Shown here piece after piece: positions 99 through 55,672 of a stretch of 64,000 nt of DNA. The position numbers were made by a program, and so were the translations under genes. Position 1 is the first letter of the stretch, and the number at the start of each line of letters is the position of its first letter. A model generated the notes under the pieces. It was not told the DNA's origin. It searched no databases and saw only the letters and a program-made list of their open reading frames with translations. The DNA is from a phage: assembly GCA_027218345.1 (NCBI GenBank), contig GCA_027218345.1_3950.1. One strand, 5' to 3'.

Positions 99-174
99 TG
101 GAGAATCCGAGGGGACTCGAACCCTTGTAAACCTGTCTTGCAGACAGGTACATATCCATTTCTGTCACGGATTC
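99..174 (-). tRNA. tRNA-Cys (anticodon GCA)
   Basis: Minus-strand cloverleaf by hand: encoded CCA, T-loop TTCGAGT, anticodon loop CTGCAAG, acceptor cggattc/gaatccg, discriminator U. Confidence 0.6.
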
Positions 175-178
175 AAAT

Positions 179-271
179 TGGAGGAAGATACCAGACTTGA
201 ACTGGTACACCGATTTCTCAGCTACTGGCAGTTTAGCAAACTGCTCCCTTACCTTTTAGGGTTAATCTTCC
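179..271 (-). tRNA. tRNA-Ser (anticodon GCU), class II
   Basis: 93 nt, encoded CCA, perfect acceptor ggaagat/atcttcc, T-arm ACCAG-TTCAAGT-CTGGT, anticodon loop TTGCTAA, long variable arm. Confidence 0.6.
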
Positions 272-272
272 A

Positions 273-1007
273 TTATTTCTGTAATGCGTTCTTCATTTCT
301 GGTGTTGCAATAGCATCAATTACACCAGTTTTACAAGCATCATCAAACCAGTCTGGTAAGATACCTGCTAAGAACCCATTGATATTCGTTTTAAGGTACT
401 CTGCAATAAGGGCAGCTTCTTCTTCAATCATCTGCACAACTTCATCTGCATAAGCTGTAATCTTTGAAATACCTTCATTAATCTTACTGACAGCTTGGTT
501 AGCTAAATCAGAAACAGTATCAAGACCCTTGTCAATAGCGTCTTGTAAGTCACTTAACACACCATTAACACTATCTAGTGTACTGTTAATCATGTCAATA
601 GCTTTTTGACCATACTCTGTAGCAACACCCATGATACCACTGAATGGTGTACAACCAACTTGTTCTCCTGCTGCACCCATAACATTGGAGTATCCTTTTG
701 CTACCTGCATACGTGATGAAAACTCATCAATAGACTTTTGACCGTAGTCTGTTAGGGTCTTAGTAGTTGCTGTAGTGCTTGTAAGGCTTGTTGTAAAGCT
801 GTTTAGGAGGACTGTTGTAAGTCCAGCAGCAACAAGTTTCTCCTTCATTGTAGGGTCTGTTACAGAGCTAATAGAGCTTACAAGTGATGTAGAGGCAGCT
901 ACGGTTCCGCCGAGAACTGCTGCACCAGTAATAAGTGGGTTAGAAAACCCTTTACCGGTTTTTAAGAGATTAAAAATCTCCTTACCTTGTCCTGTCATCT
1001 CTTTCAT
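273..1007 (-). CDS. hypothetical Ser/Thr/Ala-rich protein inside the tRNA cluster
   Basis: ORF with ATG (MKEMTGQ) preceded by AAGGTG; upstream part of the listed ORF overlaps a tRNA and is dropped. Confidence 0.45.
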   Translation of the reverse strand: MKEMTGQGKEIFNLLKTGKGFSNPLITGAAVLGGTVAASTSLVSSISSVTDPTMKEKLVAAGLTTVLLNSFTTSLTSTTATTKTLTDYGQKSIDEFSSRMQVAKGYSNVMGAAGEQVGCTPFSGIMGVATEYGQKAIDMINSTLDSVNGVLSDLQDAIDKGLDTVSDLANQAVSKINEGISKITAYADEVVQMIEEEAALIAEYLKTNINGFLAGILPDWFDDACKTGVIDAIATPEMKNALQK

Positions 1008-1025
1008 TAAGCACCTTTGAAATTG

Positions 1026-1100
1026 GTAGTCCAGTGGGATTTGAACCCTCTTCTCATGTTTTTCAGACACGCGCTTTAACCATATAAGCTACTTGGACTA
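1026..1100 (-). tRNA. tRNA, probable Phe (anticodon GAA); CCA not encoded
   Basis: Perfect 7-bp acceptor tagtcca/tggacta, T-loop TTCAAAT, anticodon loop CTGAAAA; D-region irregular. Confidence 0.45.
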
Positions 1101-1105
1101 TAAAT

Positions 1106-1181
1106 TGGGGTGACCTACGGGATTTGAACCCGTATAGACCATGTTCACAGCATGGGTCATTACCATTTATGATAAGGCCAC
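1106..1181 (-). tRNA. tRNA-His (anticodon GUG)
   Basis: Encoded CCA, discriminator C, T-arm ACGGG-TTCAAAT-CCCGT, D-stem tcat/atga, anticodon stem ccatg/catgg with loop CTGTGAA. Confidence 0.65.
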
Positions 1182-1212
1182 ATTTAAGGACTCTCGTAAG
1201 AACCCTTAGAAG

Positions 1213-1288
1213 TGGCAGCGGCATAAGGATTTGAACCTTAATAAGACAGCTTCAGAGACTGCTGCATTGCCAGTTATGCTATACCGCT
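1213..1288 (-). tRNA. tRNA-Gln (anticodon CUG)
   Basis: Encoded CCA, discriminator G, T-arm TAAGG-TTCAAAT-CCTTA, D-stem gcat/atgc, anticodon loop CTCTGAA. Confidence 0.5.
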
Positions 1289-1293
1289 AAATT

Positions 1294-1372
1294 TGGTACT
1301 CCATATCGGATTCGAACCGATACATAACACAGATTTTAAGTCTGGCCTCTCTGCCAATTGGAGTAATGGAGC
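1294..1372 (-). tRNA. tRNA, class-I shape, anticodon probably UAA (Leu-type)
   Basis: Encoded CCA, discriminator A, T-arm ATCGG-TTCGAAT-CCGAT, D-loop AATTGGCAGA, anticodon loop CTTAAAA; short variable region. Confidence 0.4.
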
Positions 1373-1374
1373 AT

Positions 1375-1450
1375 TGGCGGGGGATGTTGGAATTGAACCA
1401 ACTTCTTCGATTTCAAAGACCGAGGTTTTAACCTTGTAAACTAATCCCCT
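1375..1450 (-). tRNA. tRNA-Gln (anticodon UUG)
   Basis: Encoded CCA, discriminator G, T-arm GTTGG-TTCAATT-CCAAC, D-stem gttt/aaac, anticodon stem tcggt/atcga with loop CTTTGAA. Confidence 0.55.
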
Positions 1451-1458
1451 TTAAATCT

Positions 1459-2016
1459 TTACTTTCTCAGTGGATGAATAAAGAATGCCAACATAACTCT
1501 TTCCCTTGAGAATGCTCTTTCTTCTGGGACAACACTTTTTAGTTTCCATCCAATATAAATTCTCCAGTAAAATTGTTTACCAAAGATTTTAATTGATGGG
1601 ATAAAAGCGAATAATCCCCAAGCATTCCTGTTCCACATTAGGAGATAACCAGTCTGATTATCTTCAGGGTTAGAACTTACGTTGATATTACCTTTCCACT
1701 TAGTAACATCTTTTACATCTCTTCCTAACACATGGTAAGAGAAGTTATAAGCTTTGTTTCTCCAGAGCCATCCAACTCTCTGCAAATAGACACCTAGCTT
1801 ACCAATCTTTCTAATCTTAGCCCATCTTTTAACGTGGCCTTCATCACCATCAATTGGGTTATCATATGTCTCCATCCATCTGAATCCAAAAGGGAGATGT
1901 CCTTTCTTCTCACTGTAGAATGGAACTACGAAAGGTGCTAAGATGACTGCTAGGGTTGCTGCAAATGGTTCTAGTAAAGCTAGGAAAATCCATGAAGCAT
2001 ACTTCAAATATCTCAT
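1459..2016 (-). CDS. hypothetical protein with N-terminal hydrophobic segment
   Basis: 185-aa ORF between tRNA genes; N-terminal stretch of about 25 hydrophobic residues. Confidence 0.45.
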   Translation of the reverse strand: MRYLKYASWIFLALLEPFAATLAVILAPFVVPFYSEKKGHLPFGFRWMETYDNPIDGDEGHVKRWAKIRKIGKLGVYLQRVGWLWRNKAYNFSYHVLGRDVKDVTKWKGNINVSSNPEDNQTGYLLMWNRNAWGLFAFIPSIKIFGKQFYWRIYIGWKLKSVVPEERAFSRERVMLAFFIHPLRK

Positions 2017-2035
2017 CTAAATAGCCTCTTAAAAT

Positions 2036-2113
2036 TGGTGTTCCAAGACGGATTCGAACCGTCACTAATACAAGGTTTGAGCTTGCATCCTCTGCCAATT
2101 GGGATACTGGAAC
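2036..2113 (-). tRNA. tRNA, class-I shape, anticodon CAA (Leu-type)
   Basis: Encoded CCA, discriminator A, T-arm GACGG-TTCGAAT-CCGTC, acceptor gttccag/ttggaac, D-loop AATTGGCAGA, anticodon stem gcaag/cttgt with loop CTCAAAC, 6-nt variable region. Confidence 0.45.
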
Positions 2114-2114
2114 A

Positions 2115-2189
2115 TGGTACTCACTAAAGGACTTGAACCTTTTTCTTCATCTTGTAAGGGTGATGTTTTACCATATAAACTAAGCGAGT
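2115..2189 (-). tRNA. tRNA-Val (anticodon UAC)
   Basis: Encoded CCA, T-arm AAAGG-TTCAAGT-CCTTT, D-stem gttt/aaac, anticodon loop CTTACAA. Confidence 0.55.
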
Positions 2190-2284
2190 GTGAAAGAGGT
2201 CTGAAGTTGTGCCGCTAACTCAACTCCGTGGAATTTGTTACGGTCTTCAGTTGACACCAGCGGTCTTTCACTTGACCTCTGAAT

Positions 2285-2361
2285 TGGTGCTGCTCACAGG
2301 ACTCGAACCTGCATTTCCATCCTTACAAGGGATGTGTAATAGCCAATTATACGAAAGCAGC
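2285..2361 (-). tRNA. tRNA-Thr (anticodon UGU)
   Basis: Encoded CCA, T-loop TTCGAGT, anticodon stem catcc/ggatg perfect, loop CTTGTAA. Confidence 0.6.
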
Positions 2362-2367
2362 TTTATT

Positions 2368-2442
2368 TGGAGCATCCAGAGGGAATCGAACCCTCAACCT
2401 CAGTTTGGAAGACTGTAATTTTCCCGTTTAAACTATGGATGC
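2368..2442 (-). tRNA. tRNA-Gly (anticodon UCC)
   Basis: Encoded CCA, discriminator U, perfect acceptor gcatcca/tggatgc, T-arm GAGGG-TTCGATT-CCCTC, anticodon loop CTTCCAA. Confidence 0.6.
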
Positions 2443-2448
2443 ACTAAT

Positions 2449-2524
2449 TGGTGGAGAAGCAGGGAATTGAACCCTGTACTTAAGTTTGCAAAACTTATGT
2501 TTTAACCATGTAAACTACATCCCC
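2449..2524 (-). tRNA. tRNA-Ala (anticodon UGC)
   Basis: Encoded CCA, G3:U70 wobble in acceptor, D-stem gttt/aaac, perfect anticodon stem taagt/actta, loop TTTGCAA. Confidence 0.65.
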
Positions 2525-2530
2525 AATGTC

Positions 2531-2606
2531 TGGTACAGGTGGAGGGAATTGAACCCATCGTCTTACTGATTAAGAGTCAGCCGCATAACCATTTTGCTAC
2601 ACCTGC
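2531..2606 (-). tRNA. tRNA-Lys (anticodon CUU)
   Basis: Encoded CCA, discriminator A, T-loop TTCAATT, anticodon loop CTCTTAA; T-stem has mismatches. Confidence 0.5.
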
Positions 2607-2613
2607 ATTAATT

Positions 2614-2690
2614 TGGTACACCTAGAGAGATTCGAACTCACACTGAGCAGATTCTAAGTCTGCTGCCTCTACCAGTTGGGCTATAGGTGC
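2614..2690 (-). tRNA. tRNA, class-I shape, anticodon UAG (Leu-type)
   Basis: Encoded CCA, discriminator A, D-loop AACTGGTAGA, perfect anticodon stem gcaga/tctgc, loop CTTAGAA, 5-nt variable region. Confidence 0.5.
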
Positions 2691-2948
2691 ATTAAATCTT
2701 TTTAGAGAACTTCTAAGAACCTAAGCAACAAGGTTCCACAACAAGCTGTAATAACCTTAGAAGCCCTCTAAAAAGACCTAAAAAGGTCTTTACATAGTCT
2801 TGTTTAATCCGGTGACTAGAACCTTTGGAGAGCTTGATATTATCTCTTCTCCGTGACACCTACTAGGTGCTTTATCAGTGTGTACGACAATACACGAGGG
2901 ATACCAAAGCAACATCCGAATGAAGCTTGGCTTTAAAATCTTATTAGG

Positions 2949-3036
2949 CGGTAAGTAAAGGAGTCGAACCCTCACCGTATCTCTACAGTGGCAACTGTTT
3001 TCAAGACAGTTTGGCTACCATTAGCCGCTACCTACC
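2949..3036 (-). tRNA. tRNA-Ser (anticodon UGA), class II; CCA not encoded
   Basis: 88 nt, discriminator G, anticodon stem actgt/acagt with loop CTTGAAA, long variable arm, T-loop TTCGACT. Confidence 0.55.
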
Positions 3037-3049
3037 CCTAATAAGACTT

Positions 3050-3132
3050 TGGCATGGGACGGAGGAGTTGAACCCCTTTGAAACGGTGTTGGAAGCCGTT
3101 GCTCATGTCTTAGAGTCTTAACATCGTCCCAC
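3050..3132 (-). tRNA. tRNA, non-canonical 83 nt, anticodon possibly CCA (Trp)
   Basis: Encoded CCA, discriminator G, acceptor gtgggac/gtcccat, T-loop TTCAACT; D region enlarged, fold uncertain. Confidence 0.4.
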
Positions 3133-3275
3133 ACTATAATTCGAAGCTTACCGTATTATCTCAACACTGTAAAGCCCCTTCTCAGATTATTTACATGTTC
3201 TGGAAAACATGAGATACAGACCACCTCCCTACAGGAAGACCCGCTTAGGTCGTCTAAGTAATCTGCTAACTAAAT

Positions 3276-3357
3276 TGGTCGAGGCGGCAGGACTCGAACC
3301 CGCATACTCCACTTACTCGGTTAACGGCTGTTTAGAAGACAGCTGAGATACGCCCCG
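3276..3357 (-). tRNA. tRNA-Arg-like (anticodon UCU), non-canonical architecture
   Basis: Encoded CCA, acceptor cggggcg/cgcctcg, T-arm GCGGG-TTCGAGT-CCTGC, stem-loop gctgt-CTTCTAA-acagc; no normal D-arm found and about 23 nt before the T-arm. Confidence 0.4.
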
Positions 3358-3561
3358 TAATTATCTTTAAAGACTCTCTTAGAAAGCCCTTAAAGATGCC
3401 CACCTTATTAATCATACCGTGGGCGAGTACGCCAAATTCTTTGATGAGGGGTTGGAAGACCTCACTGGTGTTTAGCCTATCAAGCTACTGCCAGAAAAAC
3501 ATTGTCGTTTGCATTTATTTTAAATTTGCAAAATAGACGCTACGCAACGAAAACTAAGGTT

Positions 3562-3590
3562 ACTATAAAGTAGTCACATCTCAGTGTCAA
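3562..3590 (-). promoter_or_regulatory. sigma70-like promoter candidate inside the tRNA cluster
   Basis: On minus strand TTGACA, 17 nt, TATAGT. Confidence 0.35.
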
Positions 3591-3605
3591 CAACTTTATT
3601 GAAAT

Positions 3606-3683
3606 TGGTACTGTGAGAAGGATTCGAACCTTCTGCCTTTCGGTTATCAGCCGAATGCACATCCATATGTGCTAACCCACAAT
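3606..3683 (-). tRNA. tRNA-Ile (anticodon GAU)
   Basis: Encoded CCA, perfect T-arm GAAGG-TTCGAAT-CCTTC, D-arm gcac-ATATGGAT-gtgc, anticodon stem ttcgg/ccgaa with loop CTGATAA; acceptor pairs only with a 4-nt connector. Confidence 0.5.
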
Positions 3684-3760
3684 TGGAGGTTCAGATGGGA
3701 TTCAAACCCACATTCATAGGGCTTATGAGACCCTTGCATTACCTTATCTGCGACTGAACC
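3684..3760 (-). tRNA. tRNA-Met or Ile2 (anticodon CAU)
   Basis: Encoded CCA, perfect acceptor ggttcag/ctgaacc, T-loop TTTGAAT, anticodon stem agggt/gccct with loop CTCATAA. Confidence 0.55.
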
Positions 3761-3764
3761 ATTT

Positions 3765-3840
3765 TGGTAGAAGTGGAGGGATTCGAACCCATCGCCTTTC
3801 AGATTAAAAGTCTGCCGCATCACCATTCTGCTACACTTCC
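3765..3840 (-). tRNA. tRNA-Lys (anticodon UUU)
   Basis: Encoded CCA, discriminator A, T-loop TTCGAAT, anticodon loop CTTTTAA. Confidence 0.55.
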
Positions 3841-3846
3841 ATTAAA

Positions 3847-3986
3847 TTATCTTTGTAGATAAGCTACCCAGACTTGCTTAAGGTCTGTAGCGATGTGCCT
3901 TTTTGGGTTTAAATCTAGAATTTACCCTTTCACCCTTTGTGGTCGCATACTCACAGGTAAGCTTAATAACTTATCTACAAAGATAA
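3847..3986. repeat. pair of identical 16-bp palindromic hairpins in inverted orientation flanking 108 bp
   Basis: TTATCTTTGTAGATAA at 3847-3862 and its reverse complement at 3971-3986. Confidence 0.6.
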
Positions 3987-4268
3987 TTACCAGACCGTTG
4001 TTTATCATCTTAAGTGCTACCATTACACCAACTCGACATCTGCCGAGTGAAGGAATCGAACCTTCGCCTTTTCTTTACCGAGAAATAGATTGTTTAAGTT
4101 TTGCTGTAAACGGTCTTCTGTAAATTTGTTGAGCCAGACCAAGTTTTAAATTTTTCAAAATTAAATTGGCTTGAAATTTTAAGTAACTTGCTGTATTTGG
4201 TCTTCTGCTCCTTTAAAGGATGCTCGTAAGAACCCTTTAAGGGAGGGGCTAAATAGCCCTCTCAAAAT

Positions 4269-4343
4269 TGGCGAGGTGTGCGAGAATCGAACTCGCGGCT
4301 CAGGAGAGACAATCCAGTATTTTACCCGTCTAAACTAACACCC
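4269..4343 (-). tRNA. tRNA, probable Asp (anticodon GUC)
   Basis: Encoded CCA, discriminator G, perfect T-arm GCGAG-TTCGATT-CTCGC, D-stem gttt/aaat, anticodon loop TTGTCTC with one stem mismatch. Confidence 0.45.
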
Positions 4344-4350
4344 CAAAACC

Positions 4351-4779
4351 CTATGTACCATTTCTTAAGTACTTTTCTTTGCGTCTTGCTGAATTATAGT
4401 ATTTACGCCCTTCAGCATTTTTAGAAAGCCTACAAGCCTCACACCTGCATCCTCTTCTATAACCAGAAACTGTACCATGTTTAATTGGTGTGTACTTCCT
4501 TTCACCAATCTGTTTTGGTCTTGTTGCTTTCGAGTTACAGTGTATGTGGCTATATGAGATGTTATCTAGTGAAAAGAAAAGCTCTTTTGCATTTTCACTA
4601 TGTCTCCACGGAGTCTTATGCTCAATAGAGAAATCATCCCTAGTCATTTCTTTCCCGCACTGAAAACATCTATTTTGATTTGTTTTACATATAAAATCAA
4701 ATAGTAAATCTTTTACTAGCCTGTTTTGTGCAGTTCCTAAACTCATACCAAGCTGTGATTTGTATACTTCATCTCTCAT
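4351..4779 (-). CDS. HNH homing endonuclease
   Basis: HNH/zinc motifs CFQCGKE...IEHKTPW...SHIHCN and C-terminal CxC cluster; embedded in tRNA cluster; internal ATG start preferred over TTG. Confidence 0.65.
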   Translation of the reverse strand: MRDEVYKSQLGMSLGTAQNRLVKDLLFDFICKTNQNRCFQCGKEMTRDDFSIEHKTPWRHSENAKELFFSLDNISYSHIHCNSKATRPKQIGERKYTPIKHGTVSGYRRGCRCEACRLSKNAEGRKYYNSARRKEKYLRNGT

Positions 4780-4802
4780 GACTAAGTATCTCAATAAGTG
4801 TT

Positions 4803-4890
4803 TGGTGTGCCGTGTAGGAGTCGAACCTACCGAGTCTCAATGACAAGGGATTTACAGTCCCCACCGCTACCATCTACGGGATAACGACAC
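4803..4890 (-). tRNA. tRNA-Tyr (anticodon GUA), class II
   Basis: 88 nt, encoded CCA, perfect T-arm GTAGG-TTCGACT-CCTAC, anticodon stem-loop gggga-CTGTAAA-tccct, long variable arm. Confidence 0.6.
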
Positions 4891-4899
4891 ATTTAAATT

Positions 4900-4976
4900 T
4901 GGCGGTTAGTCAGGGATTCGAACCCTGTGCCATTCGCTTAACAGGCGACCGCACATACCTTATGTGCTTCCTAACC
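4900..4976 (-). tRNA. tRNA-Asn (anticodon GUU)
   Basis: Encoded CCA, discriminator G, perfect T-arm CAGGG-TTCGAAT-CCCTG, D-stem gcac/gtgc, anticodon loop CTGTTAA. Confidence 0.55.
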
Positions 4977-5053
4977 TTAATACATTGCCAGACCGTGTTT
5001 TTTCTTTTATCCGCAAAAAGTATTTTGTTGCTGAATACGGTCTTCTGCAAAAT

Positions 5054-5130
5054 TGGAGGCGGGTGCAGGAGTCGAACCTGCCGATACCATGCTAATGAGA
5101 CATGTGAGACGCCCTTTCTCTATACCCGCA
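5054..5130 (-). tRNA. tRNA-Met or Ile2 (anticodon CAU), second copy
   Basis: Encoded CCA, perfect T-arm GCAGG-TTCGACT-CCTGC, anticodon stem catgt/gcatg with loop CTCATTA; T1:C72 mismatch. Confidence 0.5.
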
Positions 5131-5221
5131 ATTCTTAATGACCAGACCAAATCTCTTCTTTGTCCGATTTACCTTCAGATGAATAAGATTAAGTTTGCTG
5201 TAATTGGTCTTCTGTCAAAAC

Positions 5222-5299
5222 TGGCGTTCCAGAAGGGATTTGAACCCTCAAATATCCACTTTGAAAGAGTGGTGACTTTACCATTTTGTCTACTGGAAC
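5222..5299 (-). tRNA. tRNA-Glu (anticodon UUC)
   Basis: Encoded CCA, discriminator G, perfect acceptor gttccag/ctggaac, T-loop TTCAAAT, perfect anticodon stem ccact/agtgg, loop CTTTCAA. Confidence 0.55.
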
Positions 5300-5306
5300 A
5301 TTAATT

Positions 5307-5382
5307 TGGTCTCTGTTGGAGGACTTGAACCTCCGGCCTTACCGCCCCAAACGGAACGCTCTACCAAGCTGAGCTAAACAGA
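5307..5382 (-). tRNA. tRNA-Pro (anticodon UGG)
   Basis: Encoded CCA, perfect acceptor ctctgtt/aacagag, D-arm gctc-AGCTTGGTA-gagc, T-arm GGAGG-TTCAAGT-CCTCC, anticodon loop TTTGGGG. Confidence 0.6.
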
Positions 5383-5548
5383 GATAAACTTTTCAAACTC
5401 TATGTAACCACTTTAACATTATTTTTTAGTGGTTGTCAAGAACTTTTTAAAATATTTTTCAGTATCTTAGAAAAGCTCTCATTTCGTTTCTATGTAGAAC
5501 ATATTAAAGGGTATCAAACACATTGTCAATACCCTTTTTTAAAACTTT

Positions 5549-34984: not shown

Positions 34985-35470
34985 TTACTCTGCTCGCCAT
35001 TGACAATCGCCTTGCCATCCATACTCTTTTCTCCAGAGGTTTTGGTTATCAGAACCACGATATGGTTTAACTGTTGGTTTAGAAGAATCATACTTACCAT
35101 CAATCACCACGTCAACATATTTCATCACATCTAGATGAATTTTTTCGTGTAACTGAAAACCTGTCCAGAGCCAGATAGACTTTTCTGGGTAAACAGTTTT
35201 AATACGTTTACATATGTTGGTGACTTCTTGAATGTTTCTGTCATCAAGAGGTTCTCCACCAAGTATTGACAAACCACTGATGGCCTCATCATCCATTAAT
35301 TTAATGATGCCGTAGAGGTTTGCATAAGTAAACTCTTTACCAGCATTAAACTTCCAAGACTCCCTGTTAAAGCAGCCTTCACAGTGATGTTTACAACCAG
35401 CTACGAAGAGGCTTACACGAACCCCTTCGCCATTAGCTGTGTCAAATGGTCGAATCTCCATGTAATTCAT
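34985..35470 (-). CDS. nrdG: anaerobic ribonucleotide reductase activating protein (radical SAM)
   Basis: CKHHCEGC radical-SAM cysteine motif; adjacent to nrdD. Confidence 0.8.
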   Translation of the reverse strand: MNYMEIRPFDTANGEGVRVSLFVAGCKHHCEGCFNRESWKFNAGKEFTYANLYGIIKLMDDEAISGLSILGGEPLDDRNIQEVTNICKRIKTVYPEKSIWLWTGFQLHEKIHLDVMKYVDVVIDGKYDSSKPTVKPYRGSDNQNLWRKEYGWQGDCQWRAE

Positions 35471-36522: not shown

Positions 36523-37470
36523 TTACATAGAAACTCTGTCACGAATCTCAGCAATTTTTGCATCATTCATTCGGGATTCACCTTTAATCTTAGTCCATCC
36601 AAGATAACCACACACCCTGTTAATCACAGAGATATCATGTGAATGGCAAACCTCACATTCTTCAACATCAGCCTTTGGTCTGTTACCACAATGCTCACAG
36701 ATTGCTAAGTCAAAGTTAAGCCCCTGATAAAAACCTTTCAACATCCCTCTGGTAATACAACTTTTAAGTGCTGTTAAGTTTTCTGGGTTAGCTACCCTTA
36801 CATACTGGATTCTGCCACCTCTACAGATGTGGAAGAATGGCTCTTCTAAGTCCTGCTTCTCAAATGGTGAAATGTTTGCTGCAACATTCATATGGAAACT
36901 GTTTGTAAAGTATTCCTTGTCAGAAACGCCTTTGATAACACCAAACATATCTCTGAACTGTTTTAGCTGAGTTCCACACAATGACTCTGCTGGAGTGCCA
37001 TATACTGCATACAGGAAGCCATCTTCATTCTTAAACTCTTCAGTTTTCATGTTAATGTATGCCAGAACATCGTATGCAAAACTAGAACTTCCAACTTCAT
37101 GGAGTCGTTTACCTTCAGCAAGAACAGATAACTCATCAAGCGCAGTAACCCCAAAAGAAGCTGTGAAGGACTTCACGATATCCCAACCAACCTTGTCGGT
37201 AGGTTTTTTAGTTCCTTTGTACAAACCACCTTGTGTGAATGCAAGAGGGTTAGAACTTGCTGGCATATTAGCAATCATTTCGTAGCGTTTCTTGTGGAAG
37301 CTGCGAATCATCTCTAGGTACTTATCAAGCTCTTTCCAGAAATCTAAACCATTCTCTTTAGAATACTGGTAAATCATTGGTAAGTTCAAAGATACCGCAC
37401 CAATGTTAGCACGACCTACATAAAACTCTTCACCATCTTCGTTATGGTATGGTGATAAAAATGCTCTACA
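36523..37470 (-). CDS. nrdD: anaerobic ribonucleoside-triphosphate reductase, exon 2
   Basis: Frame continues upstream of the listed ORF to CRAFLSPYHNEDGEE; C-terminal glycyl-radical motif RVCGY and CxxC...CxxC. Confidence 0.85.
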   Translation of the reverse strand, partial: CRAFLSPYHNEDGEEFYVGRANIGAVSLNLPMIYQYSKENGLDFWKELDKYLEMIRSFHKKRYEMIANMPASSNPLAFTQGGLYKGTKKPTDKVGWDIVKSFTASFGVTALDELSVLAEGKRLHEVGSSSFAYDVLAYINMKTEEFKNEDGFLYAVYGTPAESLCGTQLKQFRDMFGVIKGVSDKEYFTNSFHMNVAANISPFEKQDLEEPFFHICRGGRIQYVRVANPENLTALKSCITRGMLKGFYQGLNFDLAICEHCGNRPKADVEECEVCHSHDISVINRVCGYLGWTKIKGESRMNDAKIAEIRDRVSM

Positions 37471-37786
37471 CTTGTTGTTCAGGTAAGTTCGCTACGCTTA
37501 CCCCGCTTTATTCAAGCTGCTTACTGTCGCCAGTAAGTCCAGACTATATCTTCTACTTATTTCTAAGTAGCGTACCATTTCGAGTCGCTTGACCCTACAC
37601 CGCTACATTCATCACGGTTAGTCGTTCGGCATTTAGATGTATTCAAACTCATATTCGAAGTTACTTGGCATGTAAGACTCCTATGTTGTATAGTTTCTTA
37701 CATCGTACATCATTTAGCACAGGATTGTCTACTCTTGTAGAGTTTCCCTGTTTAGGCACGTTTTAGATGAGCTATAGAGCTTGTTA
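37471..37786 (-). mobile_element. group I intron (ORF-less) in nrdD
   Basis: 316 nt between exons; 5' exon ends in U, intron ends in G; conserved core similar to T4 td/nrdD introns plus GACUA/UAGUC P7 pairing. Confidence 0.7.
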
Positions 37787-38983
37787 ACCCATCGGCGAAA
37801 TAACCTTGCCAGAACGCTCAAAAGCTTCTGCTACAGCACCATGACCAGATACACTTAAGAAATCTGGATACATCGCTTTAGAGCAACACTCAATAGCTTT
37901 ACTGTACAGGTGACTTTGACAGATATTTTCATCATGTCTCTTCTGGTCATAAATATAAACCAGTTTAGGGAATACAACAGGCTTCTTGCTCTTACCTTGT
38001 CCATTCATACGAACATCTAGGAGAGTACTTGCAATCATGTATTGTAGCCGGTTGTCTTCATTAGACATATCTGAGTCAAGTAAACCAAATGTCAAAGTTG
38101 TGAATGCGAAATCACCACGGCTGCAAGGTACGGTGTTTAGCTTCATTTCAAGTGATTGAAAACCTTGAGTCAATTCAAGCTGTAGCTGCTCCATGACATA
38201 ATTATGGTAATGTTCTTTAGGAATACCATAAGATGCTGCTTTCTCAGCATGGTAACGTAGAGACTTCTTAGCATACGGTACAAGTACCTTATCAATCTCT
38301 GCTAAAGTAAAGCCACCAAATTGCTGTGCAGTTGCTGAAAGAACTACATCACCAATAACCTGTAAGGCTGACAGCACAGACTTTGGTTCACAGTATTCAA
38401 TGCCAGACATTTCAAAGCCACCTTTCAGTACTTTACCAATGTCAAACAAGCAACAGTTAATACCACCAAAAATTAGGTCTCTTAAATCATGGATATAGAT
38501 AAACCCTTTTTCAATGGCTTCAAGTTCCTCTGGTGTTAAGTGGTACTGTTTAAAGATTTCTTTAGTCAGATAACCACGAATAATTGAACCTTTTGTAGAA
38601 ATTAAACTGCTGTCAAAATTAGCGTTTTCTCTGTCACCTAAGAAGAGTGTATCTTTGGTCTTCTGGTAGAGTTCATCCCAATTTTGAGCAACCTCTTTAC
38701 GGTAATTTCTATATGTTGAGTAAGACTCATAAATCTCGTGATTGACTTCTGCCAAAGCACCCTCAACAATACTGTGAATATCATTTACTGAAACGAGTAA
38801 ATTATTCTGCTTAGTGGACTTTACCAGAATCCTCATAAATGCTGACTCAAGAGCTTGGGTAACATCTGGTGGAAGCTCTTTATAACCAACTCTGTTAGCT
38901 GACTTTGTGACTGCTACTAAAACTTTTTTGATATCAGGTTCTTCGAGTGAGCCATTCTTTTTAATAATCTGTACTTTGTTCAT
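37787..38983 (-). CDS. nrdD: anaerobic ribonucleoside-triphosphate reductase, exon 1
   Basis: ORF ends ...ISPMG then in-frame TAA that begins the intron; joins exon 2 to give conserved SPMG-CR. Confidence 0.85.
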
Positions 38984-51911: not shown

Positions 51912-52168
51912 GTAAGCCTCTTTTAAGTAACTATTAAGTTTTAATCTTTTATCTTAACGTATTCTATACGTTATACTTTAAAGCTTTTTAAAAGCTATTA
52001 AATAATCTTTTAAGAATTTTAAAGTATCTGTATAGTTAAACTGTTAAGTAACCTTTTAAGTAAAAACCCACTTCGCAAAGATTAACACCTTGTCAAGTAC
52101 ATTGTCAACTTGCTTTTTATAATTTTTTGCAGTAATGTATGTGGTTAATGATTTTAGAGGGAGTAAAA
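51912..52168. promoter_or_regulatory. divergent promoter region upstream of DNA polymerase and the minus block
   Basis: Contains CACCTTGTCAAGTACATTGTCAAC, near-identical to the motif at 7556, plus TATAAT. Confidence 0.4.
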
Positions 52169-54311
52169 ATGGAAAACGTAGATTTTAAAAACTTACATTT
52201 GGTTGGCGATACAGAAACTGATGGTTTACTCCTTGAGTTCACTAAAGTACACGTAATGGCTTTCGCAGACTATAAATCTGACGATGAAGAGCCACCTGTA
52301 TGGGTCTTTACAGATGAGCCTATCCTCGGTCACAAGTACACTAAGTACATTAAGGGTGGTTTACGTGAAGGTGTTGAGTTTGCGTTAAAGGCAAAACGAC
52401 TTTGTATCCATAACGGCCTCGGTTATGACTGGTGGGTCTTCAATCACATTGCACCGGATTTATGGAACTTTGATAATCCAAAGTGTAAGCCGTGGAGTAA
52501 TTTCTTTCAGGATTCTCTTATCCAGTCTCGTGTTCAGTGGATGGATAGACCAACTCCAAAGGGTTATAAAGGTGCTCATGGCTTGGCTGCATGGGGTGCT
52601 CGTGTTGGTGTCCGTAAACCAGAGATTGAACATTGGGGTGTGTGGAATGCAGAAATCTTCACTCGTGTTGTGGAAGATATCCGTATTAACGCCAAAACTA
52701 AACGCGCACTAGATAATGAATATCTCAAGCTGAAGAAGTGTGGCATAGACACCTATGAAACCTATATGCGAGCTAAAGAAACATCTTTCTGGATGAGTCA
52801 ACAAGCTATCAATGGTTGGAAAGCTGATAAAGAGCTTATGGAGTTCCATGTAAAGGAACTTGACAAGTTGACTAATGAGCTTGCTTCGGAAGTTGAACCA
52901 CATCTTCCTCCAACTATTAAGACCAAAGGTAAAGTTACTGGGGAAGAGTTTGCAAAAGCTTGGAATGAGTATGTTGAAGCATTTGGTCATGCAGATGGAC
53001 TGAAGAGAATCACCAAGTACCCTAAGACAAAGTATCGTCAGCAGGTACGTAATGGTGAAATGCAGACATATGAAATCAAGCCATTTGGTAAGCCAACTAC
53101 AAAGATTTTTAACATTGAAAAGAGAAATTGCTATACGCCAACCAACTCTGTAACTGGTGAAGAGTACAAGGAAGGTTTTGTAGCAATGAAGGATGCTCGT
53201 GCAATTTGCAATGAGTTGAACGCAAAGATTGGTAAGAAATGCAAAGACTGGAAGCCAGTAAAAACAGTCAAAACTGTGAAGTACTATAACAGCCACGTTG
53301 TTAACCACTTTGAACTTGAGTCAAGTCGCTACACAGGATTGATTGATGCACCATATACACCAATTGAGTTTGAAGTTTCTCGTATGACTCAGGTAGCAGT
53401 TGTTAAAGACTACTTGAAATCAGTTGGTTGGATTCCAGATGACTGGAACTACAAGAAAGACTCAGATGGTCGCCCTGTCAAAGTTTGTCGTTTCAAAGAC
53501 AATAAAAAGATGATTACAAAGCATCCTAAGTGGCAGGAGATGGTTGAGCGGTGTGGTTTGAGCTATGTTGAGCATGAAGGTGTACAGTACATTGAGCATA
53601 ACTGGTCTGTGAAGAAATACACAGATTTGCTTGAGCCTTGCTTAATCCGTACTTCACCAAAACTTACTGAATCATCTTATGATACGATTGAAGGTGAACT
53701 TGGACAGAAGATTGCTAAGTACTATACTTTGATGCACAGACGCAGAACTATTGAGAACTCAAAGGATGATGAAAAAGGTTGGTTGAACCAGATTCGTCCT
53801 GATGGTCGCCTTAGTGCTGGTGCAATGGTATTTGGTACTTCAACTGGACGTATGACACAATATGGTATTGTAAACGTACCGTCTGGTGCTGCTGTCTATG
53901 GAGCACCTATGAGGGCAGTGTGGATTTGTGAAGATGGAACCAACGTAGTCTCCGTTGATATGAACTCAGCCCAGCTAGTTCTTCTTTGCAACTTTATGGG
54001 TGATAAAGAGTTCACTAAAGCAGTAACTGAAGGTAAAGAGTCAGTAGAATTTACCAAGCAAGAAGATGGGAGGTATTATTGCAAACATCTTGATAAGTAC
54101 CTTAATCCAGAAACTGATAAGTATCTTCGTTATGATGCTGAGAATGACCTCTATGAGGTCTACACAGGGACTGATGCGCATACACTGAACAGTATTTACT
54201 TTGGTCTGAACAAGGAGGAAGATATTGTTCGTTGTAGGGAGACACAGGATGAGGAACTTCTTCACGAGATTACAAAAGGCCGTAAGAAAGCCAAAAATGG
54301 CATTTATGCGT
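52169..54311 (+). CDS. DNA polymerase family A, exon 1
   Basis: 3'-5' exo motif LVGDTETDGL at N-terminus; ends inside motif B (RKKAKNGIYA); start set at MENVDF after GAGGGA RBS. Confidence 0.85.
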
Positions 54312-54578
54312 CAGTGGCGCATGTAAAACGTTGTGAATTGCTGGAAGCCTAAGTCTGTAAAGATATGGTAATCAGCAGCGAAGCCTCTTAAGAGGAACGT
54401 TCAGAGACTATCGAAAAGCATACTTAACGTATGAACTGAGTAGAGTAGGGTGGTAAGCTAATGACCATCCCAAGTGCAACGGTAGCACCACTGCTACGTG
54501 ATATAGTCCGACACTCCGTAGAAATGCGGAGAAGTTCATAAGAGAACTGGTACACCTTGCGAGTGTATTGACCAGATG
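54312..54578 (+). mobile_element. group I intron (ORF-less) in DNA polymerase motif B
   Basis: 267 nt; exon ends in U pairing with intron GCGCAU guide (terminal U-G wobble); P/Q/R/S-like elements AATTGCTGGAAG, AATCAGCAGCG, GTTCAGAGACTATCG, GATATAGTCCG; intron ends in G. Confidence 0.7.
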
Positions 54579-55135
54579 TATTGTTCGGGGCTGGAGACGA
54601 GAAGTTTGCAAAAACTATCAAGGCATCATCTACGGAAGAAGGTGCATTGACTAAACAAACTTACTATATGCGTCTGCCAAAGATTAAGAAGTTACTTGAT
54701 AGCTTAGAAGCCGATTTTAAGGCGTCTAAAAAGGCTCTGGAAGAGGTTTTTGGGAAGAATTCTTCAATTGCTAAAGGTGGTTATATCAGGGTCGCTGGAG
54801 CATGGATATGGTGCAAATCTCCACATAAACTACTGAACTACCTCCTGATGAGTTCGGAAGCACAGATTCAGAATGAGGCCATCAACCTAGCAGCAAGAAA
54901 AGCCTGTGAAGATGGCCTGACAAAACTGAATGCTCGAAAACCAGCTATCGGAGCAAGGTTACTTCTGGCATATCACGATGAAAATAGTTGGGAATGTCCA
55001 GAGGGTATGACACATGATATGAAAGCAATTGCTGACTGGATGTATGGACAAGCTTCAAAAAACTTAGGTTTGAGGAAAGAAACACTTGTAACTGGTACAG
55101 CAAAGGTTGGTAAGAGCTGGTATGAGGTACATTGA
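54579..55135 (+). CDS. DNA polymerase family A, exon 2
   Basis: Begins LLFGAGDEK (rest of motif B), contains motif C YHDE; spliced product gives RKKAKNGIYALLFGAGDEK matching T7-type motif B. Confidence 0.8.
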
Positions 55136-55138
55136 TTA

Positions 55139-55672
55139 ATGGATTTAATTTTACAAAAACGTTTAAAGGAGCTGCTGCACTATGACCCCGAAACAGGGGT
55201 CTTTACTTGGCTTCGTAGAGAAGGTAAATCAAGAGCTGTTAGTGTTTTTAACAGTAATTATGCAGGAAAGGTGGCAGGTAATATCCAGACTGACTCAAGT
55301 GGTCATAAACAGATTAGTATCTATTTTGACAAGAAAGCACATAAAGCACACAGACTCGCATGGCTTTACGTGTATGGCAAGATGCCAAAAGGTATCATTG
55401 ACCATATCAACGGCGACTCACTTGACAACAGGATTGTAAACTTAAGGGAAGCAGATGATTTTCAAAGTGCTTGGAATAAAGGTAAACCAGTCACCAATAA
55501 ATCTGGGTACAAGGGTGTAAGTCTTAAGAAGAAGTCTGGTAAGTGGGTCGCACAGATAAGTTATAAAGGTAAGAAGATGTTTTTAGGTTACCATGACACA
55601 CCTGAAGAAGCCCATAAAGCTTACTGTGAAGCTGCTATTAAACTCCACGGAGAGTTTGCAAAACTAAGTTGA
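55139..55672 (+). CDS. free-standing HNH homing endonuclease with AP2-like DNA-binding domain
   Basis: HNH motif KGIIDHINGDSLDNRIVNLR and AP2-like YKGVSLKKKSGKWVAQISYKGKKMFLGYHDTPEEA; starts 4 nt after polymerase stop. Confidence 0.75.
   Translation: MDLILQKRLKELLHYDPETGVFTWLRREGKSRAVSVFNSNYAGKVAGNIQTDSSGHKQISIYFDKKAHKAHRLAWLYVYGKMPKGIIDHINGDSLDNRIVNLREADDFQSAWNKGKPVTNKSGYKGVSLKKKSGKWVAQISYKGKKMFLGYHDTPEEAHKAYCEAAIKLHGEFAKLS

Follow-up and report, generated by a model that had tools for sequence, protein, structure and literature searches.

The nrdD gene of the phage genome studied here, a Felixounavirus (Felix-O1-like myovirus) of which we analysed a 64,000-nucleotide stretch (the window), raises a simple question: why does it appear as two open reading frames when each of them reads as only part of NrdD? 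On the minus strand, the upstream NrdD ORF (37784..38983) encodes 399 aa ending in ...ISPMG at its stop codon, and the downstream ORF (36523..37389) lies in a frame that stays open upstream as far as 37470, reading CRAFLSPY..., with its first in-frame start, a TTG, 27 codons past that junction. The gap between the two frames is exactly 316 nt (37786..37471), contains stops in all three frames and opens, as the original prediction had described, with an in-frame stop, here UAA (37786..37784). The aerobic genes nrdA and nrdB lie upstream in the window, and the activase gene nrdG is intact downstream (34985..35470). Most deposited Felixounavirus genomes, and the window's own genome too, list nrdD as two fragments or label the pieces hypothetical proteins. 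We consider it very probable that the gap is instead a self-splicing, IA2-like group I intron of 316 nt between the codons for Gly399 and Cys400, with nrdD composed of exon 1 (38983..37787), the intron (37786..37471) and exon 2 (37470..36523).

Because intron-less relatives are continuous at the junction, both ends of the intron are fixed exactly. These relatives run ...CCGATGGGT/TGTAGAGC... unbroken (in such readings the slash marks the exon junction), and the spliced 400-nt junction aligns in one piece with ECML-1, FO1a, HY02, VpaE1 and other Felixounaviruses; ECML-1, for example, reads TCGCCGATGGGT/TGTAGAGCC, the two exons being 0 nt apart. The intron-less nrdD of FO1a is 2145 nt long, equal to exon 1 plus exon 2 of the window, and other Felixounavirus alleles hold 316, 292 or 742 nt at the identical point. 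Joining U37787 to U37470, with G37471 as the last base removed, gives the ligated-exon mRNA junction ...AUGGGU/UGUAGAGC... (more widely, ...CCGAUGGGU/UGUAGAGCA...) and restores ...VISPMG-CRAFL... in a 714-aa NrdD. This U...G junction had been proposed from the letters of the window, and it agrees with the empty-site alleles and with the annotated Bas63 protein: applied to Bas63, it reproduces the GenBank joined CDS QXV81758.1 residue for residue. We rejected the limits of the Rfam match (37894..37520) as intron ends, the 5' part being the model's P1/P2 placed with low posterior probability in exon 1, and the true 3' end lying 49 nt beyond 37520, past P9.1 and P9.2 and outside the model. The features of the locus are collected in Table 1.

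Table 1. Features of nrdD and its predicted group I intron in the window
Feature	Position	Strand	Description
nrdD exon 1	37787..38983	-	codons 1-399; ATP-cone and N-terminal part of NRDD domain; ends ...VISPMG
5' splice-site U	U37787	-	final base of exon 1
nrdD exon 2	36523..37470	-	codons 400-714 and stop; first codon UGU = Cys400 (37470..37468)
Predicted group I intron	37471..37786	-	316 nt, IA2-like, without P2; starts UAA, ends G37471
In-frame UAA	37784..37786	-	first three intron bases
P1, 5'-exon strand	37787..37793	-	GAUGGGU
Internal guide, P1 part	37766..37772	-	GCUCAUC
Internal guide, P10 part	37773..37780	-	GCUCUAUA; directly 5' of the P1 part
P10, 3'-exon strand	37463..37470	-	UGUAGAGC; first eight bases of exon 2
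Catalytic core	37520..37760	-	P3, P4, P5, P6, P7, P7.1, P7.2, P8, P9 with GCGA tetraloop; Rfam alignment
P3	37760..37755 with 37576..37571	-	pseudoknot with P7
P7	37623..37619 (GACUA) with 37546..37542 (UAGUC)	-	pseudoknot with P3
P7.1 and P7.2	37582..37618	-	ACCG with CGGU (P7.1), GGGUC with GACUC (P7.2); extra helices between P7 and P3'
3' extension	37471..37517	-	P9.1 (GCUU with AAGC), P9.2 (GGUAAG with CUUACC), tail UGAACAACAAG ending in the terminal G; outside the Rfam match
P6a/P6b peripheral arm	37633..37711	-	HNH gene site in relatives; deletion scar in the window
P6b stem, 8 bp	within 37633..37711	-	AUGUAAGA with UCUUACAU; abuts the Shine-Dalgarno sequence and takes in the first two AUG bases
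Shine-Dalgarno AGGAG	37682..37678	-	in the scar
Remnant ATG	37671..37669	-	in the scar
Remnant ORF	37671..37633	-	MPSNFEYEFEYI, then stop; 12 codons

The nature of the inserted RNA was assessed with an Rfam scan, which the original prediction had named as a check. Group I family RF00028 scores 54.3 bits, above its gathering score of 50 (E = 5.3e-11 for the whole 64-kb window, 7.5e-13 locally), and is the sole Rfam match in the region at E <= 1. The lack of P2 and the length of the P6a arm explain why the score exceeds the threshold by just 4 bits; the same model gives 60.4 for the 292-nt allele and 105.3 for the intron of T4 nrdD. At the gathering threshold, RF00028 gave no match in the endonuclease-bearing alleles of Andreotti or Vibrio phage F89 because an ORF of 430-500 nt in P6a defeats the model, and the comparative alignment was therefore made with the P6a interior removed. 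An element of another kind (a group II intron, an intein, an insertion sequence or the scar of a free-standing homing endonuclease) has a practically negligible probability. Such elements are not foreign to these genes, since inteins and free-standing endonucleases are found in phage RNR genes (PMC3653736) and Sl26 has a separate homing-endonuclease gene just downstream of nrdD. However, the stop at the start and the stops in all frames mean that the insertion cannot be an intein, we found neither terminal repeats nor a transposase in it, in length and helices it matches a group I ribozyme, and no other family competes for the region in Rfam.

All core helices of this putative ribozyme are fully paired in the window copy. 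The core string on which the original prediction relied, CUAAACAGGGAAACUCUACAAGAGUAGACAAUCCUGUGCUAAAU, is found at intron positions 32-75, and the GACUA and UAGUC segments that it had picked out as P7-like are both there and pair as P7. Helices P7.1 and P7.2 between P7 and P3' define subgroup IA2 (Michel & Westhof 1990). Both of these extra helices are present here. Of the splice signals, P1 (GAUGGGU with GCUCAUC) forms 7/7 pairs in all seven aligned introns, with a terminal U·G in 7/7 (U37787·G37772 in the window), and P10 (GCUCUAUA with UGUAGAGC) forms 8/8 pairs in the window copy. Where the exon differs, so does the P10 guide: compared by eye, it is UUGGCA against exon UGCCGA in Vibrio phage F89, and CUAUA against exon UGUAG in HMD-6 and VEcB. 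The final intron base is G (G37471). Folding also agrees with a group I structure, in that the unconstrained minimum free energy fold (-80.2 kcal/mol, with a modest z of -2.64) recovers P3, P4, P5, P6, P6a, P7.1, P7.2, P8, P9 and P9.2, leaving P7 as the one core helix that it does not form.

Covariation was evaluated in a MAFFT alignment of seven related, hand-picked introns, with a structure that was derived from one member and is therefore favoured over slid controls: 95.1% of cells pair, compared with 32.5-41.5% when the partners are slid by 1-3 columns, and 30 pairs have changes on both sides, compared with 4-9 in the slid controls. The observed covariation score was reached by 0 of 500 shuffles. 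Covarying helices are P3, P4, P6a, P7.1 (three pairs with changes on both sides), P8, P9 and P9.2; covariation is uninformative for P7, P6 and much of P1 and P4 because those never vary. P5, P8, P10 and P9.1/P9.2 are misaligned in some rows, and the T4 3' splice site was placed 3 nt too far downstream (the correct T4 nrdD junction is ...CACAUUG/AUGAAGUG), which lowers the counts for P10 (helix 2 of the alignment) and leaves the core unaffected.

The joined product was also compared with NrdD homologues, as had been suggested, and is full length and colinear with them. It matches Pfam PF13597 (NRDD) with 384.6 bits in one stretch (residues 119-712, profile positions 1-560 of 562), carries an ATP-cone at 5-97 and is colinear with solved NrdD structures (9d3x and T4 1h78) through PMGCRSFL. 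Once the exons are joined, the NRDD domain, the glycyl-radical motif (RVCGYLG, near the C-terminus in exon 2) and the catalytic Cys all fall in a single frame. By computation from the coordinates of the T4 record, the intron position at Gly399/Cys400 places Cys400 opposite T4 NrdD Cys290, the thiyl-radical cysteine. The joined NrdD is under purifying selection, with dN/dS of 0.013-0.058 among intron-bearing alleles and in the same range against intron-less FO1a, and codons 400-427 (28 codons, running from the 3' splice site through the first possible start) are conserved, with mostly synonymous changes.

These 28 codons count against a truly split nrdD, in which the two ORFs would be translated separately and the fragments would assemble without splicing, like the mobE-split NrdA of Aeromonas phage Aeh1. 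Because its first start lies 27 codons past the junction, a separate downstream fragment would be without Cys400 and the CRAFLSPY...GRANIGAVS block, and yet the codons skipped are maintained. Most database records do give two nrdD CDSs, the gene has been called a 'split gene interrupted by a homing endonuclease' (PMC4837284), and split yet functional RNR genes occur in phages (PMC3653736). Nonetheless, the intervening RNA has a complete, covarying group I fold with guides complementary to both exon ends, and intron-less alleles indicate an ancestral gene that was continuous at this exact junction, leaving separate translation extremely unlikely.

With respect to mobility, no endonuclease ORF lies inside the intron, as originally stated; what the P6a/P6b arm holds is a 12-codon HNH remnant and a Shine-Dalgarno sequence left by a deletion. 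Compared with the 742-nt allele, an in-frame 426 nt (142 codons) is missing from the 154-aa HNH gene, of which the Shine-Dalgarno sequence, the ATG and about 10 terminal codons are left. The 154-aa endonuclease of the relatives matches Pfam HNH_3. Alignment of the 316-, 292- and 742-nt alleles indicates that the window intron is a deletion derivative of the 742-nt HNH-bearing allele, and the 292-nt allele of phage RPN213 is a second, independent endonuclease deletion. The 154-aa HNH_3 gene is carried by 61 related phage records and the intron, at >=90% identity (mostly 95-99%), by about 96, leaving about 35 endonuclease-less by subtraction, and the nrdD site is empty in about 136 phage records. 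Four allele states therefore occur within one genus: empty, endonuclease-bearing and two independent endonuclease deletions. The window copy is not a mobile intron in the sense of one with an intact endonuclease gene within it. Since the deletion removed the endonuclease, it cannot home unaided, and since the endonuclease target site is occupied, it should protect that site.

Endonuclease loss is also the stage before intron decay in the homing cycle, which raises the alternative that the insertion is a decayed, splicing-dead relic and nrdD a pseudogene, its product dispensable given the window's aerobic NrdAB. We judge this very unlikely. The genes nrdA and nrdB are indeed present and the Rfam score is near threshold, but both exons are intact, with dN/dS among intron-bearing genomes in the same low range as in the comparison with intron-less FO1a, every core helix of the window copy is fully paired, the activase gene nrdG is intact, and endonuclease-less copies account for about 35 of the roughly 96 intron-carrying records. 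A group I intron in nrdD, as originally predicted, is the reading on which Rfam score, empty site, splice signals, covariation, product and public annotation agree.

From this in silico evidence we infer the chemistry of the window intron and its splicing in vivo. nrdD would be transcribed as a single pre-mRNA, in which base pairing of the guide GCUCAUC with exon-1 GAUGGGU would create P1 and its closing U·G pair. Free guanosine bound at P7 would attack after U37787, the neighbouring guide GCUCUAUA would pair with exon-2 UGUAGAGC as P10, the terminal G37471 would take the G site, and the exons would be ligated into an mRNA encoding the 714-aa NrdD. The UAA with which the intron starts would, as in the T4 td intron, stop ribosomes on unspliced RNA and so keep them out of the ribozyme. 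The intron is a selfish element derived from the 742-nt mobile allele with its P6a HNH homing endonuclease, and the endonuclease-deleted copy would still splice. Two further suggestions drawn from the sequences are tentative, and we think each rather doubtful: that an endonuclease-less intron may be kept as target-occupying protection, and that the Cys-site lineage may come from a T4-sunY-like intron. If the first is true, the occupied target would shield nrdD and linked markers from cleavage in co-infection with endonuclease-carrying relatives. If the second is true, the ancestor of the Cys-site lineage would have inserted ectopically at another position in nrdD, reverse splicing being one conceivable route; AUGRGU is the P1 target at both the sunY and the Cys site, and GCUCAU serves as the guide in both introns.

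The intron junction itself was already known, being annotated in the close relative Bas63 (GenBank MZ501086). Full-text searching of the literature found neither an explicit description nor a splicing test for any allele of the Felixounavirus nrdD intron. Felix O1 is said to have no introns, which is true of Felix O1 itself, and phage SPJ41 lists 'two introns' as ncRNAs. The window has one more group I intron, which interrupts its DNA polymerase gene. By exact-sequence look-up in the protein collection, the spliced 714-aa protein is absent and only the 399-aa exon-1 product is present. The value of the result is mainly practical: nrdD should be annotated with one 714-aa enzyme as its product, made after predicted RNA splicing. 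The finding is real but ordinary and reveals no new kind of element or mechanism; it is a textbook case of a selfish ribozyme at the most conserved codons of a gene of essential function, just before the radical cysteine. The genus Felixounavirus presents the homing cycle in full, and because all stages coexist and the site is occupied in unrelated phages as well, it makes a convenient natural system for intron gain, loss and inter-phage competition.

Among known introns, the nearest is the 742-nt Felixounavirus allele (JohannRWettstein/Bas63 MZ501086; Andreotti, UAB_Phi87 and FSL SP-010), which has the identical insertion point and a ribozyme 96-99% identical; the joined CDS of Bas63 in GenBank MZ501086 uses the exact Gly399/Cys400 junction. 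The likeness of the core to T4 td/nrdD-type introns in the original prediction stands, the core being of IA2 type and most like that of the T4 nrdD (sunY) intron, but it does not extend to the insertion site. The window intron and the T4 sunY intron are both in nrdD, both without P2, nearly alike in their 5' regions (UAAC...AGCUCAUNUAAAA) and 77.5% identical in the core over positions 152-262, with the P1 exon hexamer AUGRGU and the P7.1 loop GAUGAAUGUA common to both. The endonuclease ORF of the T4 nrdD intron (I-TevII) lies in the P9 region, whereas the Felixounavirus HNH gene lies in P6a, and the T4 enzyme belongs to a different family. A common insertion site was rejected: tblastn against Y00122 puts the T4 break at the equivalent of window residues 280/281, inside a codon, compared with 399/400 in the window, and in T4 PMG-CRSFL is uninterrupted within exon 2.

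The T4/T6 td intron (I-TevI), the IA2 archetype, shares the P3-P4-P5-P6 core string, P7.1/P7.2 and the 3' tail CUGAACAUAAUG, and, as in this lineage, opens with an in-frame stop and houses its endonuclease ORF in the P6a loop. It differs in its host gene (thymidylate synthase) and in having a P2 helix, and its endonuclease is a GIY-YIG enzyme, not HNH. Beyond Felixounavirus, the same xMG/CR codon boundary of nrdD is interrupted in Vibrio phage F89 g2 (intron 2), Escherichia phage HMD-6 (138 kb) and Justusliebigvirus VEcB. Their introns measure 762-819 nt, have homologous cores and each carry an intact HNH endonuclease gene in the P6a loop; co-variation is seen in the P10 guide and in several helices. 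Outside Felixounavirus, the closest relative of the endonuclease is that of the Vibrio phage (38.7% amino-acid identity), and the NrdD of Vibrio phage F89 is about 29% identical to that of the window over the aligned region. The nrdD Cys site is occupied in at least 33 of 85 IMG/VR loci carrying the core motif, and introns are common at this Gly/Cys site in unrelated phages.

Very likely, in our view, the 316 nt interrupting nrdD form a group I intron that is functional, self-splicing and bounded as listed in the table below. The original prediction of such an intron had described two NrdD ORFs 316 nt apart with an in-frame stop at the start of the gap, and reading the sequence bears this out: the gap between U37787 and U37470 is exactly 316 nt, an in-frame UAA comes first, all three frames contain stops, and the frame of the second ORF stays open upstream as far as 37470, where it reads CRAFLSPYHNEDGEEFYVGRANIGAVSL. 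The core string that the prediction quoted and its GACUA/UAGUC pair are both present in the window, as is every other detail it gave. Its call was correct and its case well formed, yet the element is an ordinary one, belonging to the best-studied class of phage introns, and dozens of deposited genomes carry copies with 96-99% identity to it.

Coordinates of the nrdD and DNA polymerase features in the window
Feature	Position	Strand	Remarks
NrdD ORF 1	37784..38983	-	ends ...VISPMG then stop
NrdD ORF 2	36523..37389	-	listed from TTG at 37389
nrdD exon 1	37787..38983	-	
nrdD intron	37471..37786	-	316 nt
nrdD exon 2	36523..37470	-	
DNA polymerase ORF 1	52139..54352	+	split by second intron
DNA polymerase ORF 2	54581..55135	+	split by second intron
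Second group I intron	54312..54578	+	RF00028, 62.8 bits; Rfam match 54249..54531
177-aa ORF	55139..55672	+	HNH_3 and AP2 domains; directly 3' of DNA polymerase gene

When 200 nt of each exon were joined as a spliced-junction query and searched against the phage collection, the query aligned in one piece (92-95% identity) in many Felixounaviruses, including ECML-1, VpaE1, HY02, JK55 and FO1a, and needed two pieces in others, with inserts of 316 nt in EC6 and D1-2, 292 nt in RPN213, and 742 nt in Andreotti, Sl26 and Bas63. Across the junction ECML-1 reads TCGCCGATGGGT followed by TGTAGAGCC with 0 nt between them, and the uninterrupted nrdD of FO1a, an intron-less Felix O1 variant, is 2145 nt long, exactly exon 1 plus exon 2 of the window. 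Since T stands on either side, the break could shift by one base, but group I introns need a U ahead of the 5' splice site and end in G, which fixes it. The guide follows the textbook pattern: in P1, closed by U·G, exon-1 GAUGGGU is paired with GCUCAUC (37772..37766), and directly 5' of GCUCAUC GCUCUAUA (37780..37773) pairs at 8 of 8 positions with exon-2 UGUAGAGC to form P10.

Group I identity is supported by an Rfam scan: the RF00028 match at 37894..37520 (-) reaches 54.3 bits, where the gathering score is 50 (E = 5.3e-11 for the whole window); no other Rfam match was found in the nrdD intron region, even at E <= 1. The core helices P3, P4, P5, P6, P7, P8 and P9 align at high posterior probability, and the P1/P2 positions of the model are spread at low probability across exon 1, so the match coordinates are ruled out as intron limits. 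Only five bases (UAAAA) lie between the P1 guide and P3, leaving the intron without P2, like the nrdD intron of T4. Unconstrained folding of the 316 nt (-80.2 kcal/mol; z = -2.64 versus shuffles) recovers P3, P4, P5, P6, P6a, P7.1, P7.2, P8, P9 and P9.2, but not P7, whose pseudoknot with P3 puts it out of reach. For covariation, we aligned seven introns (window, RPN213, Bas63, Vibrio phage F89 intron 2, HMD-6, VEcB and T4 nrdD) after trimming from the homologous introns the inner part of the P6a arm, in which endonuclease genes sit. Against a structure written for the window sequence, itself one of the seven, standard pairs occupy 95.1% of cells compared with 32.5-41.5% when partners are slid by 1-3 columns, both sides change in 30 pairs compared with 4-9 in the slid controls, and in 500 shuffles the covariation score never gets as high as the observed one. 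P3 alone appears as CGUGCC/GGUACG, CAUCCU/GGGAUG, UCUAUC/GGUAGA and UCUGCC/GGCAGA, while P7, P6 and most of P1 do not vary among the seven. The MAFFT alignment misplaces a few columns; separately, the 3' splice site of T4 was entered with an error of 3 nt, with consequences for P10 only. Specific results contradict the reading of the insertion as another type of element, as they do its reading as a dead relic, which is very unlikely. By analogy with the group I family, the intron would be removed by two-step guanosine-initiated chemistry, and ribosomes may arrest at its UAA.

The joined 714-aa product gives a single Pfam NRDD match at 119-712, which spans 1-560 of the 562 profile positions, and also an ATP-cone; it aligns with NrdD homologues, being colinear with solved NrdD structures through ...PMGCRSFL.... 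The first residue past the junction, a Cys, is the equivalent of T4 Cys290 (from the T4 record coordinates and the 605-aa T4 chain), which we take to be the thiyl-radical cysteine. Among intron-bearing alleles the dN/dS of joined nrdD is 0.013-0.058, and it lies in the same range against FO1a. That nrdD might be a truly split gene is very unlikely and also contradicted by specific results: in codons 400-427, from the 3' splice site through the first start codon available, the alleles differ mostly by synonymous changes, a conservation hard to explain unless exon 2 continues the reading of exon 1.

In the 742-nt alleles, a gene for a 154-aa HNH_3 endonuclease occupies the P6a loop; the P6b stem has the gene's Shine-Dalgarno AGGAG and ATG just within it, and the final codons overlap the P6a 3' strand. 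The window keeps the AGGAG, ATGCCAA and the last ~10 codons as an in-frame fusion, MPSNFEYEFEYI plus stop, at 37671..37633 (-), and differs from the 742-nt alleles by a 426-nt deletion between short AAT repeats. Judged by sequence, the window intron is a deletion derivative of an endonuclease-bearing allele, which the original prediction overlooked. The 292-nt allele of RPN213 has different deletion end points, so the endonuclease has been lost at least twice. Records in the phage collection, which includes duplicates and makes all allele counts rough, number 232 for the junction region, ~96 for the intron at >=90% identity and 61 for the endonuclease, giving ~136 empty sites and ~35 introns without endonuclease. 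By analogy with other group I introns, an occupied site would be immune to the HNH enzyme.

A 2.7-kb query around nrdD matched 364 phage records, the best (95-96% identity) being the Felixounaviruses Andreotti, EC6, Bas63/JohannRWettstein and UAB_Phi87. These relatives, the minus-strand order nrdA, nrdB, glutaredoxin, small membrane protein, nrdD, nrdG, and 22 tRNA genes by Rfam (cluster at 100..5400 (-); weakest match 2949..3036, 88 nt, 33.2 bits) are typical of Felix-O1-like phages. Some relatives, ~1 kb longer across the region, carry a further homing-endonuclease gene directly 3' of nrdD exon 2 (Sl26 record, 3511..4068), which the window lacks in its stretch from nrdD to 36499. Several 'Campylobacter phage' records (MG065664, MG065668 and others; A132, A126) match this region, from an E. 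coli/Salmonella Felixounavirus, at 95% identity and are probably mislabelled or contaminant sequence.

The nrdD intron is already known at the level of annotation. According to the Felix O1 genome paper (PMC3185647) there are no introns, which holds for Felix O1 itself, whose nrdD site is empty; later papers describe a 'split nrdD interrupted by a homing endonuclease' (PMC4837284), and 'two introns' are listed among the ncRNAs of Felixounavirus SPJ41 (PMC9951933), a number equal to the two Rfam group I matches in the window. Intron boundaries are annotated in the BASEL collection; the nrdD CDS of MZ501086 (Bas63) is a two-piece join, and the window junction applied to that genome yields QXV81758.1 exactly. 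We found no splicing test of the nrdD intron in the literature. For the exon-1 product of the window, the sole record is a 399-aa 'hypothetical protein [Escherichia coli]' (HDB9326406.1, third-party-annotated) on an 85,701-bp contig, so the phage genome behind the window appears to form part of a bacterial assembly that bears a bacterial name.

The second intron splits the DNA polymerase gene, and its boundaries were set provisionally by reading frame and length difference. Removing 267 nt joins ...AKNGIYA to LLFGAGDEK..., and phage HY02 lacks exactly 267 nt at this site, where other Felixounaviruses have ~520 nt more, including an ORF whose annotation is endonuclease or endonuclease VII. The N-terminal exon (52139..54311 (+)) encodes 724 aa with no Pfam match at E <= 0.001, and a motif-B-like sequence lies at its extreme end, running on into the next exon, which together indicate a very divergent polymerase. 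The 177-aa ORF that follows resembles a homing endonuclease of the free-standing type.

Scanning IMG/VR for the core motif gave 85 loci, at which NrdD is broken at 399/400 confidently in 33 and probably in 9, in proteins 24-98% identical to that of the window; of the rest, 1 lies at the T4 site and ~42 in other genes. Homologous HNH-bearing introns occupy the same codon boundary in Vibrio phage F89 (...SYMG/CRSLL), whose NrdD is only ~29% identical over the aligned region, and in HMD-6 and VEcB (...TSMG/CRSFL). This nrdD site is thus widely used by introns, a point that the original prediction also overlooked. Three IMG/VR loci (L025, L028 and L084) have extra nrdD interruptions at the equivalents of residues ~290/293 and ~561, and upstream in F89 nrdD lies another HNH-bearing intron, its first (L011, 1..1400); nrdD is evidently a multi-site intron target. 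In phiKZ-like jumbo phages, 72-81% matches to the 3' half of the intron (Pseudomonas phage PA32_GUMS 1501..1635, for example) adjoin a gene for a non-virion RNA polymerase subunit and part of an HNH endonuclease, so the IA2 core is common to very distant phage groups. The T4 nrdD intron breaks the gene at the equivalent of residues 280/281 and leaves PMGCRSFL unbroken, which rules out its site as that of the window intron, a difference likewise overlooked by the original prediction. The two introns, at different sites of the same gene, have in common the P1 target AUGRGU and guide GCUCAU (T4 record 2770..2800; window 37766..37793), which from the sequences would fit reverse-splicing transposition between two nrdD sites.
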